Shown here: positions 1,311-10,070 of the stretch, in pieces
Numbering within the stretch: position 1 is the first letter of the stretch
How the letters are laid out: every line of letters starts with the position of its first letter
Virus record (IMG/VR): IMGVR_UViG_3300028883_000047
Location: 1 to 11,680 of that record
Length of the DNA: 11,680 nt
Direction: 5' to 3' (one strand)
Source: a virus
Taxonomy: Duplodnaviria > Heunggongvirae > Uroviricota > Caudoviricetes
Made by a program: the position numbers and the translations under genes
The notes under the pieces: model-generated
Databases searched by the model: none
Seen by the model: the letters and a program-made list of their open reading frames with translations, nothing else
Told to the model about the DNA's origin: nothing

Positions 1311-2000
1311 ATGAGTTTAATAAATCTAATCGAAGCTGACATCCACCAGGAACGAAAACTTCGCGACACTGCTTGGAAGAGCCCACAAGAAGCTATCCGC
1401 TGGATGGAAAAAAATAACTTCCAGAAACTTGGCTCCGGAGCATTCGCTGCTGCTTATGCTGTTCCTGGACACAAACGTGTAGTTCGTCTTTCTTTGGCAG
1501 CGGATAAGTGTTGGACTCACTTCGCTGATTGGGCTATGAATATTACCAGCAACCCCCATCTTCCTCGTATCCAGTGGACTAAGTGGTATGAGGGAACGCG
1601 TAAGGGTAAGCAACAAACATTTGTGTTATCGATCGTGGAACGGTTGGAACGATTTGATGCTCAGGCTATAGCAGGAACGACTGATTTCATTGCTCTAGTA
1701 GAGTTGTACATGTCTGGTAATATTTTCGAAAGCACCATCGAACACATGATAGAAATACGGCTCGAGCGAGAGGGTTTTGATCCCACTACCAAACGGGGTA
1801 GAGACAAGATCGAATTGTATCGTCAACGACATCAAAAAAGTAGATTTAGCAGCACATTAAATGCTGTTCATCAAATGGCAATGAAAACTGGCTGCGAGTA
1901 TGATTTTCATAATGAAAATTTAATGTACCGTCCGCAGACAAAAAACATCGTTCTCATTGACCCATTAGCTGATTTTGATAGCTTAACGCTAGACGATTAA
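1311..2000 (+). CDS. Ser/Thr protein kinase-like protein resembling the T7 gp0.7 kinase domain
   Basis: Gly-rich loop LGSGAFAAAY, catalytic loop YDFHNENLM, metal-binding IVLIDP. ATG 1311 (MSLINLIEA) is preferred over the ORF-track start at 1236, which reads through antisense tRNA-Cys. Confidence 0.8.
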   Translation: MSLINLIEADIHQERKLRDTAWKSPQEAIRWMEKNNFQKLGSGAFAAAYAVPGHKRVVRLSLAADKCWTHFADWAMNITSNPHLPRIQWTKWYEGTRKGKQQTFVLSIVERLERFDAQAIAGTTDFIALVELYMSGNIFESTIEHMIEIRLEREGFDPTTKRGRDKIELYRQRHQKSRFSSTLNAVHQMAMKTGCEYDFHNENLMYRPQTKNIVLIDPLADFDSLTLDD

Positions 2001-2001
2001 T

Positions 2002-2079
2002 TGGTACCCACCCTCGGATTCGAACCGAGATACAAGAGGACTTAAATCTCCCCGCGATTGCCAATTAGCGTAGGTGGGC
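2002..2079 (-). tRNA. tRNA-Leu(TAA), short variable loop
   Basis: GCCCACC/GGTGGGT acceptor, Leu-type D loop AATTGGCAA, anticodon loop TTTAAGT (A31-C39 mismatch), 5-nt variable loop TGTAT, A73 and CCA. Confidence 0.8.
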
Positions 2080-2358: not shown

Positions 2359-2443
2359 TGGTACCGAGGGCGGGATTCGAACCCGCAAGGCCAAAGGCCG
2401 GCAGATTTTAAGTCTGCTGTGTATACCGTTCCACCACCCCGGC
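2359..2443 (-). tRNA. tRNA-Leu(TAA), canonical long variable arm
   Basis: GCCGGGG/CCTCGGT acceptor, GCAGA-CTTAAAA-TCTGC, variable arm GGCC-TTT-GGCC, A73 and CCA. Confidence 0.95.
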
Positions 2444-2444
2444 T

Positions 2445-3590
2445 TTAAAACATATCGTAGTAATTGTAACTCTTGGCTGGAACTTCTTTAGCCATTACAA
2501 GATATTCATCGGTTTCATATACAATCTGACCAGCAGACTCATATGCAACCTGAGTGGAAGCAATATAAATTTCCTCATTGTCGTCGTCATCATCGTCCAT
2601 GTCAATGTCTGCAGCTCTGAGTGCTGCTTTGACCTTTGAATTTTTGCTCGTGTGACTGCCCTTAGGTTTCAGTCTGATATACGTATAGTCATACGAACCT
2701 GAGGGCTTAGCGACGATCGCCTTCTGTGCAAGCTCTCGTTTTTCTTCGGTTCCCTTTTCAACGACTTTGATGATTTCAATTTCGGAACCAATCTGTTGAC
2801 GAACGTCGATGTTCAGTTCATCAATAATTTCATCAACAGGCGATCCGAACCGTAGATGTTCTTCAACGATTGATTGAAGCATATCGAAGCTAAAGATTTT
2901 AGAACGACGCGACAAATCAACGATATCTTTGATCGTTGTAACTGATACCCCATGGTCAGCACAGTATCCTTTGATACTAGCCTCGTCCAACTTCCTGTAA
3001 CGGAAATGATAGTAGATACGACTTGGACGGTTGAGCATGAAGTCGCTGATGTCGATCTCGCTATTCTCTGTCATGATGATCAGACGCTTAGTCTTATCAA
3101 CACCATCCATCAACGACAAAAGAGAATCTTGATGCGTCCCGTCCTGGTGCTTGGACGACGTATACATCTTTCCGAATTCATCAAATACAAGACAACACTC
3201 ACCAAGCGATTGGACGAATTGGTCAAACTGATCGCCAGCGTGAGCATCACGAACGAGAATAACCGGAAGACGGAGAGAGTCGATAACACTATTTGCCAAC
3301 AAAGACATGAACAGAGTTTTACCAGTACCTTTATCACCAGTCAAAAGGATACCAGTTGACATCGGACGATCTTTGTAGGTGGTGATACACTTCTCGACAC
3401 GTTCATGTGCCGTACCGTAAATCTTTTCGGGGATCTGGAGATGATCCTTTATAACAGTGAGATAAAAACCAGAGAACTGACTAAACTGAACTGCATATAC
3501 TCTTGGCGGTAGGTAGTCGAGTGCTGTTTCATCGCTGAGCTGAACAACAGAAACGTGTGTTCCATTGATCAGAAATTTAGTCTGCATCAT
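2445..3590 (-). CDS. AAA+ family ATPase
   Basis: 381 aa. Walker A GDKGTGKT, Walker B LVFDEF, and NRPSR arginine-finger region. Confidence 0.9.
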   Translation of the reverse strand: MMQTKFLINGTHVSVVQLSDETALDYLPPRVYAVQFSQFSGFYLTVIKDHLQIPEKIYGTAHERVEKCITTYKDRPMSTGILLTGDKGTGKTLFMSLLANSVIDSLRLPVILVRDAHAGDQFDQFVQSLGECCLVFDEFGKMYTSSKHQDGTHQDSLLSLMDGVDKTKRLIIMTENSEIDISDFMLNRPSRIYYHFRYRKLDEASIKGYCADHGVSVTTIKDIVDLSRRSKIFSFDMLQSIVEEHLRFGSPVDEIIDELNIDVRQQIGSEIEIIKVVEKGTEEKRELAQKAIVAKPSGSYDYTYIRLKPKGSHTSKNSKVKAALRAADIDMDDDDDDNEEIYIASTQVAYESAGQIVYETDEYLVMAKEVPAKSYNYYDMF

Positions 3591-4692: not shown

Positions 4693-5388
4693 TTAGCGAC
4701 CTAGGATCTCGTCAACTTCTTCCTGTGGTAGGAGTTGTGCTTCGTAGTTGCCGTATCCAATGTGACGCTCGATCTGATTGACATATGCTCGGAGATGGTT
4801 TCTGGAACCATTGAGCAAATTGTTCAGAGTGCGTTGAACGTCTGCACGGTCGGTTGATTTAAGACCGCAATCATCTCTTGTGTATAGTTCTACGTTTGCA
4901 TCTAGTATTTGCTGATTGCAGTAGTTGATGTCGATCATATCAAGCTCTTCGATGAATGCCCCAACGTACATTGCGTCAAGAACGCTCATTTCACCTTTTG
5001 TAACGAACTCATTAAACTTCTCAGTGAAGTATTCACTGTACTCAGCACCAGTGAACACACCTACATTATCGTTCGTCGATGGATCAACTACATCATATTT
5101 GTCGAGTAGTTTCTTTACTGCATCGGTGTGTTTTTGTTCTGAGTCGTCGATACGACCGAATGCTCTCGAGCGTGGATACATCTGACTGAAAACGATGTAC
5201 ACGTCACGCGCGAGTTTTTCTTCTTCCCGCATAAAGGTCAGATGCTGCTCTTCTGCAATTGTGAGATTTGCTGTGGTTTGGTTTTGTTGGCCACCTTGCC
5301 ATCCTCCCCATCCCTGACCCCAGCGGGCCATCAGAGGTGCGGAGGTGATCAGTGCAGCCGCCAATAATAGTGTTATTAGCTTTTTCAT
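4693..5388 (-). CDS. DUF2202 ferritin-like domain protein with signal peptide
   Basis: Motifs LTFMREEEKLARDVY, SEQKHTDAVKKLLDKY, GAFIEELD, GSRNHLRAY. N-terminal MKKLITLLLAAALITSAPLMA. SD AGGAGG. Confidence 0.88.
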   Translation of the reverse strand: MKKLITLLLAAALITSAPLMARWGQGWGGWQGGQQNQTTANLTIAEEQHLTFMREEEKLARDVYIVFSQMYPRSRAFGRIDDSEQKHTDAVKKLLDKYDVVDPSTNDNVGVFTGAEYSEYFTEKFNEFVTKGEMSVLDAMYVGAFIEELDMIDINYCNQQILDANVELYTRDDCGLKSTDRADVQRTLNNLLNGSRNHLRAYVNQIERHIGYGNYEAQLLPQEEVDEILGR

Positions 5389-7252: not shown

Positions 7253-7446
7253 TAGTGAACAGACTCGAACGCCTTTTCATAGACGAAGTCGCGGTGTTCT
7301 TCGTTCAACTCGTTGAGCTCGTCTTCCGTCAACTCTTCTCCGGTATCTTCCCAAACTGCGTATGCGATATATGCATCACAAAAGTCTGGATAGTCCCACA
7401 TATGGACATCTTCAACTTCAATGTCTGTTATATTATCGAGGTTCAT
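7252..7446 (-). CDS. Conserved acidic phage hypothetical protein
   Basis: 64 aa with DYPDFCDAYI motif. Stop/start overlaps with both neighbouring CDSs. Confidence 0.8.
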   Translation of the reverse strand: MNLDNITDIEVEDVHMWDYPDFCDAYIAYAVWEDTGEELTEDELNELNEEHRDFVYEKAFESVH

Positions 7447-7760
7447 TAAGCACCACCTGGTGAAATTTGTATAGGTATGTAGATGAATGCAGCTCCTTCT
7501 GTGAGCTGTACGGCTACATCAGCTTTGAGTATGCCCCTTTTGGAATCTTCAAGGTTGTTGTTACTTTCATCACACACTACTGTAAAATCATTTAGCTTGC
7601 GAGTTACTACAAGCGGGGATAGGTAATTGGTTATTGCAACTTTAAAGTTGTTACGCAAGAGCTGATCGTTGACCTCAAATAGAGCATGTTTAGCTAGCTC
7701 TATTAGATTGTCTTTGATGTTTTCAAGAACTTCTCTTTGACTGTCTTTCGTTACTTTCAT
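7446..7760 (-). CDS. Stand-alone tail sheath C-terminal domain-like protein
   Basis: LFEVND...F...I..YL...DFTVVCDESNN...ADVAV...FIYIPI resembles the C-terminal region of T4 gp18-type sheath proteins. Only 104 aa. Confidence 0.7.
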   Translation of the reverse strand: MKVTKDSQREVLENIKDNLIELAKHALFEVNDQLLRNNFKVAITNYLSPLVVTRKLNDFTVVCDESNNNLEDSKRGILKADVAVQLTEGAAFIYIPIQISPGGA

Positions 7761-7866: not shown

Positions 7867-8127
7867 TTAGTTTATTGGATACAAGACGACGCACCGAGGA
7901 TGTTTTTGTTTAAACTCATCCCACTCGTCTTCTTCCATATCTGCATCTTCTGCCGACCATGATGGAGTCCATACTTCACCGCTCCAGGTCGTTTCAGCAA
8001 CGTAGATAGCATCATTATCAGCACCAGCGCATGGTGAGTATCCGTTACCTTCAGCATCCTTCTGCATGATTACATCAAGTTCAGGATCCATCTCGCTCAG
8101 CTGTTTTATCAGATCTTTTACTTTCAT
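7867..8127 (-). CDS. Conserved phage hypothetical protein
   Basis: MKVKDLIKQLSEMDPELDVIMQKDAEGNGYSP... Start moved to 8127 because the ORF-track extension to 8172 overlaps the RNase P RNA 3' end. Confidence 0.8.
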   Translation of the reverse strand: MKVKDLIKQLSEMDPELDVIMQKDAEGNGYSPCAGADNDAIYVAETTWSGEVWTPSWSAEDADMEEDEWDEFKQKHPRCVVLYPIN

Positions 8128-8136
8128 TTGTTCATC

Positions 8137-8327
8137 GTAACCGATAGCCAGGATTCTGTCAAGGGACATCATTCATCTATTTGCCACAACCCGTCCTCAT
8201 AGGGTAGAGCTTCCCTCGGACTGTTTGTGTTGCATAGGACTTTTATTTGTAGTAAAACGCCGTAGCTCCTACAACATGCTCCGCCTATGTCCTGAGCTTC
8301 CTCACCGTAGTGCGATGCCCTGGTTAC
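8137..8327 (-). ncRNA. rnpB: Minimal type-A-like RNase P RNA (catalytic domain only)
   Basis: P1 GTAACC/GGTTAC, P2 GGCATC/GATGTC, P3 CAC-TACG-GTG. P4 AGC-(U)-CAGGA/TCCTGGCT lies in GAGGAAGCTC and ACAGAATCCTGGCTATC contexts. J5/15 CAA, L15 AAACA/GGGTT, and TAGATGAATGA. Confidence 0.88.
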
Positions 8328-8331
8328 AATT

Positions 8332-8409
8332 TGGTGCCCACGGTCAGAGTCGAACTGACACTCACTACCCTCTCAAGATAGCCGCTTTGCCAGATTAGCG
8401 TACGTGGGC
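8332..8409 (-). tRNA. tRNA-Leu(GAG), short variable loop
   Basis: GCCCACG/CGTGGGC acceptor, D loop AATCTGGCAAA, CTATC-TTGAGAG-GGTAG, variable loop TGAGT, A73 and CCA. Confidence 0.87.
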
Positions 8410-8422
8410 ATAGAAATAAGTT

Positions 8423-8520
8423 GAGCGGCGCTTAATGCTACCGGATGGACTTGAACCACCAACAAGACGTTTTCACGCGTCCGTTCTACGTTGAACTACA
8501 GTGACACTCGCATACCGCTC
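8423..8520 (-). ncRNA. Degenerate tRNA-Phe(GAA)-like core enclosed by an outer helix
   Basis: Core 8436-8505 has D arm GTTC-AACGTA-GAAC, GACG-CGTGAAAA-CGTC, T arm GGTGG-TTCAAGT-CCATC and no CCA. Outer stem GAGCGG/CCGCTC. Confidence 0.6.
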
Positions 8521-8635: not shown

Positions 8636-8729
8636 TGGCGGAAGGTCAGGGATTCGAACCCTGATGCCCATACAATGGACTTTCGGTTTAGCAAACCGCC
8701 CCGGACTGACCTATCCCGGCACACCTTCC
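8636..8729 (-). tRNA. tRNA-Ser(GCT), atypical D region
   Basis: GGAAGGT/ACCTTCC acceptor, CGGT-TTGCTAA-ACCG, long variable arm GTCCAT/ATGGGC, G73 and CCA. G8 and a 3-nt acceptor-to-D linker are unusual. Confidence 0.85.
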
Positions 8730-9155
8730 TTTAAACGTTTTATGAGACCATTCGGGTGCCTCATCTGTTAGGTCAAGAAAATCCTCGTACCACAAAAATT
8801 TGTTCCCATTCTTCGGTGCGACGAATTTTATTCTCCGTCCACCAAAGTGGAATGCCGGAAATACTACACGCTGCACATCGGGCAAGTATAAAGCGTAGTA
8901 TTCAAAGTCGCCGTCTTGGTACCTGACTTCGTGGTTTCCAGCCTTTGTTGCATACGATGTTGCATTGCGTATTGTTCCGTCAGCACTATGCTTCACTTGG
9001 ATACGCACTAGTCGTTTTCCAGTATCTGCGATGATGTCGTATGGTAAGTGTTCGCTCAACGGAATCGATATATCATATCCTAGTGCCGTCAACGCCGCCA
9101 CAGCCTGCGCCAGCGCTAGATCTGATTTGTTCTTAGTGTGATGTTCCCGTGCCAT
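8688..9155 (-). CDS. PD-(D/E)XK endonuclease, free-standing homing-endonuclease type (I-Ssp6803I/PDDEXK_5-like)
   Basis: HHTKNKSDLA...GYDISIPLSEHLPYDIIAD...RIQVKH gives PYD...QVK catalytic motifs. SD AGGAG. The last 14 codons lie in tRNA-Ser(GCT). Confidence 0.85.
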   Translation of the reverse strand: MAREHHTKNKSDLALAQAVAALTALGYDISIPLSEHLPYDIIADTGKRLVRIQVKHSADGTIRNATSYATKAGNHEVRYQDGDFEYYALYLPDVQRVVFPAFHFGGRRIKFVAPKNGNKFLWYEDFLDLTDEAPEWSHKTFKGRCAGIGQSGAVC

Positions 9156-9593: not shown

Positions 9594-10007
9594 TTAGGTA
9601 CTGAGGCGACGCCCTCCTATCAGCTCAGCAAGGTACTCGCGTGACTCGTCCGACAACCCATCATACTCAGCGTTTCCGATGTCTTCATGAAGCTGTAATA
9701 TTTCAGGAGTGGCTTCTCCTTCCAGGTCGTACCCTCGTTGGAGGCACTCGTGCTGAAATACGGCGGTCAGTATCTCACCGAATTCTTCCGCTTTTACCAC
9801 CGTCTTGTTCCGTCGAGGCGGATCGGCGATCTTCTTCCTGTATGAAAGACCTGTTCCTCGCAGGCCGACGTTTGCGTGAACGCCTTGTTTTCCGACGGAT
9901 AGAGATGTTCCGCGAGGACCAATCCCAACACTTGATACTCCTTGCTTCCCGATGTTTATTCGGAAAAACTTACCGAGCGAGAAAATCTTTCGAAATCGAA
10001 AACCCAC
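9594..10007 (-). CDS. DUF4236 domain-containing protein
   Basis: GTG start at 10007 with SD GGAGG. MGFRFRKIFSLGKFFRINIGKQGVSSVGIG...NVGLRGTGLSY is the DUF4236 pattern. Confidence 0.85.
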   Translation of the reverse strand: MGFRFRKIFSLGKFFRINIGKQGVSSVGIGPRGTSLSVGKQGVHANVGLRGTGLSYRKKIADPPRRNKTVVKAEEFGEILTAVFQHECLQRGYDLEGEATPEILQLHEDIGNAEYDGLSDESREYLAELIGGRRLST

Positions 10008-10041
10008 GACTTGACCTCCATTTAATGTAGTACGTCTTCGC

Positions 10042-10070
10042 ATTATAGGAGCAAATCCCGTTGGGGTCAA
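10042..10070 (-). promoter_or_regulatory. Near-consensus sigma70 promoter
   Basis: TTGACC-17 nt-TATAAT upstream of the DUF4236 gene. Confidence 0.8.

Follow-up and report, generated by a model that had tools for sequence, protein, structure and literature searches.

A putative phage-encoded, strongly reduced type-A-like RNase P RNA within a tRNA cluster

Reduced and virus-encoded relatives of RNase P RNA

No bacterial-type RNase P RNA without a specificity domain (S-domain) is known to us. Most of this domain is missing from the archaeal type T RNAs. These natural RNAs of the Thermoproteaceae, Pyrobaculum among them, are diminutive (~200 nt) and are missed by standard Rfam models (PMC3579882). 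For the bacterial RNA, an equivalent reduction has been obtained by engineering: the isolated catalytic domain (C-domain) of the E. coli RNA is catalytically active and needs a P6-like pairing for efficient cleavage, P18 adds nothing to it once the S-domain has been removed, and the efficiency of the C-domain by itself falls far short of that of the full-size RNA (PMC5839562). In type-A RNase P, the L15 GGU and a J5/15 adenosine read the CCA and the U(-1) of the tRNA (PMC6582537). Two further systems share single traits with the RNA described here. The camelpox RNase P-like RNA (PMC3001073) is a virus-encoded RNA related to RNase P, and theta ribozymes, which are minimal HDV-like catalytic RNAs, are reported to lie beside phage tRNA genes (PMC10879173).

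Here we analyse a window, by which we mean the whole stretch of DNA under study, that corresponds to the initial 11.7 kb of an IMG/VR virus record of 75.7 kb (CheckV completeness ~24%) and that encodes a miniature RNase P RNA. With type-A RNase P RNA (RF00010; E. coli M1 RNA, rnpB) it shares the lineage, P1-P6, P15-P17, the L15 GGU and the conserved regions CR-I, CR-IV and CR-V; however, it measures ~197 nt instead of ~380, is devoid of P18, P7-P14, CR-II and CR-III, has a P3 of only 3 bp, and is encoded by a phage within a tRNA array and not by a lone chromosomal gene. A preliminary description of the locus had compared it with Pyrobaculum type T, a comparison that is sound as an analogy but not as a statement of lineage: type T combines an archaeal sequence with archaeal proteins, whereas the phage RNA is bacterial type A in sequence. 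The reduction seen in type T and in the phage minis is convergent and does not reflect shared ancestry.

A laboratory counterpart in design is the engineered 'Eco CP RPR' (PMC5839562), which likewise consists of the C-domain only, keeps a P6-type pairing and lacks P18. Unlike this construct, the phage mini is natural, selected and widespread, and it bears a conserved hairpin at the site of the S-domain; its activity is predicted. Theta ribozymes are small and self-cleaving in cis, whereas the phage RNA is putatively trans-acting and has an unrelated fold. The camelpox RNA, in turn, is kin to eukaryotic RNase P, belongs to an animal virus, does not lie in a tRNA array and has been discussed as a possible decoy. 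Full-text literature searches yielded no report of a phage-encoded RNase P RNA, and a survey of huge phages (PMC7162821) leaves RNase P unmentioned. As far as we could find, a phage-borne RNase P RNA of bacterial type, with an S-domain that is a single hairpin and with no P18, is new.

Architecture and genomic setting of the RNA

The sequence at positions 8330-8134 was confirmed to adopt the catalytic-domain fold of bacterial type-A RNase P RNA (Table 1). Every element of the catalytic core that had been listed in the preliminary description was found, all on the minus strand, and so were the tracts UAGAUGAAUGA and ACAGAA...AUCGG. The location first given for the RNA, 8137-8327 with ~191 nt, is right, but its ends had been set too short: 8327/8137 is a G-C pair inside P1, and the full stem extends to 8330/8134, which gives 197 nt.

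Table 1. The miniature RNase P RNA gene, its structural elements and its two neighbours (window coordinates)
Feature	Position	Strand	Remark
tRNA-Leu(GAG), encoded CCA	8332-8409	-	RNase P RNA begins 1 nt after the CCA
Whole miniature RNase P RNA gene, 197 nt from P1 to P1	8134-8330	-	RF00010 alignment; 200 bits with model R1
P1, 5' strand AUUGUAACC	8322-8330	-	pairs with 8134-8142, 9 bp
P2, 5' strand GGGCAUC	8314-8320	-	pairs with 8164-8170
P3 hairpin CAC-UACG-GUG	8303-8312	-	family variants CAC/GUG, CAG/CUG, CUG/CAG
CR-I: GAGGAA and P4 5' strand AGC-U-CAGGA, bulged U8295	8290-8303	-	GAGGAA..UC.GGAC invariant in alignment A1
P5, 5' strand CAUAGG	8284-8289	-	pairs with 8233-8238
P6 pseudoknot, 5' strand GGAGC	8278-8282	-	pairs with 8206-8210, in the P17 loop
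Single hairpin replacing the S-domain, stem UUGUAG/CUACAA	8247-8274	-	asymmetric internal loop
P5, 3' strand CCUAUG	8233-8238	-	pairs with 8284-8289
J5/15 CAA and P15 5' strand CAC	8227-8232	-	P15 covaries: AC/GU, GU/AC, GC/GC, UC/GA
P16 (GUCC/GGAC) around P17 (AGGG/CCCU)	8193-8221	-	P16 94% paired
P6 pseudoknot, 3' strand GCUCU in L17	8206-8210	-	pairs with 8278-8282
L15 CGGGU (GGU at 8191-8189) and P15 3' strand GUG	8185-8193	-	CGGGU invariant in A1; falls on CGGGUa of the RF00010 model in the alignment
CR-IV tract AUAGAUGAAUGA	8169-8180	-	is J15/2 here
P2, 3' strand GAUGUCC	8164-8170	-	pairs with 8314-8320
CR-V: ACAGAA and P4 3' strand UCCUGGCU	8146-8159	-	in register with RF00010
P1, 3' strand GGUUACGAU	8134-8142	-	pairs with 8322-8330
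Small acidic ORF, 86 aa, no Pfam match	7867-8127	-	downstream neighbour, outside the RNA

When 207 nt were searched alone, RF00010 matched 8129-8331 (-) over model positions 1-367 with 35.7 bits (E 4.8e-10), and P1/P2, P3, CR-I, P5, GCAA, P15, P16-17, CGGGU, CR-IV and CR-V were in register with the model. The Rfam covariance-model alignment that had been proposed as a check on P4 and L15 was thereby obtained, at a score far below the Rfam gathering score for this family, which is 100 bits. RNase P was not matched in Rfam by the whole window at the gathering threshold, nor by a 371-nt slice at E<=10. Since the match appears only with the bare 207 nt and stays below gathering, routine annotation misses the gene, and the family described below would show that standard Rfam annotation systematically overlooks genes of this kind. 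Against all 4227 Rfam families, the window RNA matched RF00010 only, with no match to the type-T model; weak RNaseP_arch matches (21-36 bits) were obtained in a few relatives. BLAST of the window RNA, in near and distant modes against cultured phages and also against E. coli genomes, gave no match, and the same was true of four other family members searched against cultured phages; BLAST is too insensitive for this RNA.

P4 of the window RNA reads AGC-U-CAGGA/UCCUGGCU, with CR-I before it and the CR-V sequence ACAGAA-N-CC.G closing it. The four compensatory changes reported earlier for this helix were upheld when it was set against a fetched enterobacterial rnpB (L041; 328 bits with RF00010). 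In that reference, as in the window RNA, a spacing of 9 nt separates the CR-IV tract AGAUGAAUGA from the ACAGAA that follows. CR-IV coincides here with J15/2 because P18 is absent: the model columns of P18 are deleted, and only 'A...A' lies between the 3' strand of P15 and CR-IV. Also absent is the P7-P14 specificity domain with CR-II and CR-III, where ~140 model positions have given way to one hairpin of 28 nt (8247-8274). The deletion of these columns in the RF00010 alignment bears out the earlier view of the S-domain as one hairpin, UUGUAG/CUACAA, in an RNA without P18. The asymmetric internal loop of this hairpin, GAG opposite (C)GUUnnUA, is conserved across the subfamily, and no match to a known motif was found for it. 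Folded as a single sequence, the window RNA has an unremarkable stability (z -1.14), and its nested helices were recovered.

The position inside a tRNA cluster was likewise borne out. The gene abuts tRNA-Leu(GAG), and all 24 tRNAs found in the window by ARAGORN lie on the minus strand; CCA is encoded in 23 of them and U occupies position -1 in 18. At its other end, the gene stops 6 nt before the ATG (8127) of the small ORF. A search with the covariance model R1, described below, showed it to be a single copy in the contig. No terminator was found near the RNA, and promoter-like sites occur there at chance level only. One sigma-70-like sequence, TTGACA-17-TACGAT at 8162-8134 (-), falls within the 3' portion of the RNA and immediately precedes the ORF at 8127; the count of such sites in the region is that expected by chance, and this TTGACA belongs to the conserved CR-V tract.

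The phage nature of the contig is indicated by the IMG/VR virus record and by strong PHROG matches, which comprise a T4 Rnl1-like RNA ligase, an NAD-dependent DNA ligase, NAMPT and a PurZ-like enzyme. The sequencing runs that contain the sequence are of DNA only and come from marine sediment (metagenome); no RNA-seq run containing it was found. Several ORFs are interspersed in the array, all on the minus strand, and correspond to a PD-(D/E)XK endonuclease (8688-9155), DUF2202 (4693-5388), an AAA ATPase (2445-3590), DUF4236 (9594-10070) and a 104-aa protein (7446-7760), the last of which matches only a phage tail sheath C-terminal domain.

Covariation and distribution of the family

A pattern based on CR-IV and CR-V brought up clear relatives in viral contigs, in which the distance to CR-I was short in some cases and full-length in others. 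With a generic, short-gap P4 pattern we obtained two sets of 76 and 62 loci in IMG/VR viral contigs. At least 7 of the 8 P4 pairs can form in 140 of 145 pattern matches in viral contigs, a proportion to be read against the ~7% expected by chance for a pattern that itself forces three pairs. From the window RNA and its 15 nearest relatives we built the covariance model R1 (16 sequences, mini only), which at E<=0.001 gave 80 matches to the first set and 54 to the second. About 130 homologues were thus found in IMG/VR viral contigs, mostly of large phages, with most matches on contigs of 50-500 kb. The window RNA is matched over its full length with 200 bits, as its membership in the model ensures by construction. 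Measured from P1 to P1, the mini class has a median size of 200 nt and a minimum of 186 nt among full-length matches, the window RNA having 197-199 nt.

The family keeps close company with tRNAs. Within 2 kb of 80 members, all tRNAs (447 of 447) are co-oriented with the RNA; the nearest tRNA lies at a median of 1.5 nt from the match, and at least three tRNAs occur within 2 kb in 54 of the 80.

Longer copies found in phage tRNA arrays score above the Rfam threshold (L023, 209 bits; L019, 168; L048, 146). A 207-nt phage RNase P RNA, L045:10596-10802 (+), also does so (118.5 bits to RF00010), and it keeps P18 and part of the S-domain while lacking P15-P17; it is therefore reduced differently from the minis, and reduction has proceeded by more than one route. 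Since R1, built from minis only, also matches L023, L019, L048 and L045, these copies provide a transitive link between the minis and canonical RNase P RNA. Close relatives of the window RNA match RF00010 below the threshold, with 46-63 bits and E values of 1e-11 to 1e-16 (L114, 62.8 bits; L101, 56.3; L011, 49.7; L084, 48.9; L123, 46.1).

A copy is also present in a cultured phage, Stenotrophomonas phage DLP6 (KU682439.2), where positions 105766-106024 match R1 with 93.7 bits (E 6e-26) and RF00010 with 54.7 bits, below the cut-off. It lies in the tRNA array of this phage, in an unannotated stretch flanked by a hypothetical CDS and tRNA-Arg.

In 596 Gb of bacterial and archaeal genomes, the short-gap P4 pattern occurs at more than 120 loci, and R1 matches nine of the 80 listed; the other 71 were rejected as chance matches. 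Of the nine, five are found on MAG contigs within dense arrays of co-oriented tRNAs, and the remaining four lack a nearby tRNA. The small number of R1 matches among the listed cellular loci indicates that the mini form is concentrated in phage DNA. The four matches with no tRNA in the fetched locus, L258:5903-6133 (-), L283:2040-2261 (+), L225:1331-1544 (-) and L273:7559-7796 (+), come from MAG contigs binned as Gemmataceae, Ca. Shapirobacteria, Elusimicrobiota and Rhizobiales, and could be either reduced RNase P RNAs of cellular origin or phage DNA that ended up in the bins.

Two other observations concern contigs of the family. On a 488-kb viral contig (L178), R1 matches at 1876-2073 (-) and 2368-2627 (-), ~300 nt apart, may represent two tandem mini RNase P RNA genes. 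GOLLD RNA (191 and 179 bits) or tmRNA (119 bits) occurs near the tRNA array in contigs with a mini RNase P RNA, the loci being L012:1003-1462 (+), L114:5642-6103 (+) and L129:1020-1390 (+).

Covariation among homologues, proposed as a check in the preliminary description, is strong in the family alignment. RNAalifold, run unguided on a MAFFT alignment, recovered P1, P3, P4, P5, the stem of the S-hairpin, P15 and P16, with double-sided changes in 26 of 38 pairs. The modelled helices were then evaluated on a covariance-model alignment of 70 distinct sequences, which is fitted to these same helices. Here 93.4% of the cells hold a pair, against 64.2% after shuffling and 31-40% with slid partners; double-sided changes number 726 against 225 in shuffles, and the covariation score is 0.634 against 0.155, a value that none of 500 shuffles reached. 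All 8 modelled pairs of P1 show double-sided changes, as do 5 of 6 pairs in P5 and all 4 in P16, where 94% are paired. P4 is 99.3% paired, with 85 double-sided changes against 21 in shuffles, and the S-hairpin stem (helix 5) is 96% paired. A resemblance to RNase P RNA by chance was rejected on the P4 counts given above, the RF00010 E value of 4.8e-10 and this strong covariation.

Because the alignment is fitted to its own helices, those outside the model, P2 and P6, offer cleaner tests. For P2, 82.8% of cells are paired against 50.8% after shuffling, with 159 double-sided changes against 51. P6 was assessed free of register, by comparing each segment following P5 with the P17 loop of its own RNA or of another member: the mean was 5.34 for cognate and 3.87 for non-cognate comparisons (p 8e-19, for sequences that are related). 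The P6 pseudoknot GGAGC/GCUCU proposed from the first reading is thus present in the window RNA and supported by the cognate test, and the pairings found across the family are diverse (GAAACU/AGUUUC, GCAAGUG/CACUUGC, AGGGAAU/AUUCCCU). P17 is weakly supported in column counts; such counts are uninformative for P6, P17 and the outer stem of the S-hairpin because the register drifts in the loops of the covariance-model alignment.

Predicted activity, protein partner and alternative readings

Taken together, the data make it almost certain that the window RNA is a selected homologue of RNase P RNA, and the sequence comparisons support its description as a phage-encoded, strongly reduced, type-A-like RNase P RNA in a tRNA cluster. 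The full mechanism that we favour, and regard as probable, is that of a trans-acting RNase P ribozyme for the pre-tRNAs of the phage itself. The RNA would be transcribed as part of the tRNA array, as suggested by its orientation, which is that of tRNA-Leu, by the single nucleotide between it and the CCA of that tRNA, and by the lack of a nearby terminator. Its catalytic core, kept whole, comprises P1-P5 with the bulged U of P4, the J3/4 adenosines, P6, P15-P17, the L15 GGU as partner of the tRNA 3' RCCA, CR-IV and CR-V; P18 and almost the whole specificity domain have been lost. With this core it would most likely cleave the 5' leaders of the phage's own pre-tRNAs, and it would recognize them by the acceptor stem, the 3' CCA and U(-1) and not by contacts with the T- and D-loops. 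The CCA and U(-1) of the window tRNAs match the retained L15 GGU and J5/15 A.

The protein partner would probably be the host RnpA, since the regions of RNA contact (P2/P3, CR-IV, CR-V) are retained and no phage rnpA was found. The window had been described as lacking an rnpA gene, and PF00825 indeed has no match across the whole 75.7-kb contig, nor in ten related phage genomes, of which five have a completeness rating of 97-100%. Given that the contig is only ~24% complete, the partner may yet be encoded by the phage.

The strong selection on P6 and the loss of P18 and the S-domain in the phage family are what the result with the E. coli C-domain predicts (PMC5839562), so that the minis already agree with the laboratory finding that P6 matters and that P18 is dispensable once the S-domain is gone. 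As a natural C-domain-only family of ~200 nt, they would provide many test cases for what a minimal RNase P core needs. We also propose, tentatively, that they form a widespread phage lineage without S-domain or P18 that is catalytically active in infected cells, with host RnpA or with no protein, and dedicated to tRNA 5' maturation. If this is true, they would be the smallest natural bacterial-type RNase P RNAs, and would constitute an enzyme that reads only acceptor stem and CCA and serves oversized, partly atypical tRNA sets.

The same ribozyme activity might instead be directed mainly at other substrates, such as tRNA-like or scaffold RNAs of the array or mRNA leaders, the loss of the S-domain having retargeted the enzyme. 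This loss does remove T- and D-loop recognition, the window contains atypical tRNA-like elements such as the Rfam-only tRNA at 8436-8505, and bacterial RNase P RNA is reported to be able to cleave non-tRNA substrates with an RCCA end (PMC12710915). We nevertheless think such retargeting unlikely, as the family is strictly associated with ordinary tRNA arrays and canonical tRNAs with CCA and U(-1) predominate in the window.

Somewhat less likely still is that the RNA is a non-catalytic decoy or regulator, which would sequester host RnpA or compete with the host RNase P RNA and thereby redirect or throttle host processing. Such a role has been proposed for the camelpox RNA (PMC3001073), and it would agree with the high conservation of P2/P3, CR-IV and CR-V, which contact RnpA and are among the most conserved regions, and with the failure to find rnpA in the contig and the ten related phages. 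However, elements that serve only catalysis or docking, namely the bulged U of P4, the J3/4 adenosines, CGGGU, the J5/15 CAA and P6, are invariant or covarying, and the CCA and U(-1) that match them are present in the phage tRNAs; these features would be superfluous in a decoy.

That the RNA is a functionless, decaying fragment of a captured host rnpB might be read from its half size and its score below the Rfam gathering threshold, but this is very improbable: in ~130 diverged copies the same helices are maintained by hundreds of compensatory changes, the invariant nucleotides of the core have been kept and the position in tRNA arrays is conserved, so that covariation effectively refutes it. 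We give equally little credence to a protein-coding region, for although an open frame of 101 aa runs from an ATG at 8172, inside the RNA, to 7867, it overlaps only about the last 40 nt, which are CR-IV, P2, CR-V and P4 with conservation at the RNA level and covariation, and the in-frame ATG at 8127 just after P1 gives the 86-aa ORF, which has no family match.

If the RNA cleaves the phage's own pre-tRNAs, the reading we prefer, tRNA 5' processing would join the translation functions that are brought along by large phages. With the copy in DLP6, a cultured phage is available in which the question can be addressed experimentally.

Some minor features of the array and contig are recorded here. 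A weak tRNA detected by Rfam (36.3 bits) at 8436-8505 (-), just upstream of tRNA-Leu(GAG) and unreported by ARAGORN, is an atypical tRNA-like element. Conversely, ARAGORN reports at 2002-2079 (-) a tRNA with anticodon UUA, which reads the stop codon UAA and is unlisted by the Rfam tRNA model at the gathering score; it is possibly an ochre suppressor. In most tRNAs AAUU or AUU directly follows the encoded CCA (for example 8331-8328, 11195-11191 and 4387-4384), and AAUU also starts the 5' flank of the mini RNase P RNA, so that this sequence could be a shared 3'-processing signal. On the same contig, the T4 Rnl1-like RNA ligase (phrog_562; tRNA-repair ligase type) is encoded at L335:12297-13439 (-). 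A match to phrog_1211, annotated as '2-aminooxy adenylosuccinate synthetase' (L337:18510-19733, minus strand), was read as PurZ-like and hints at a diaminopurine (Z) genome.
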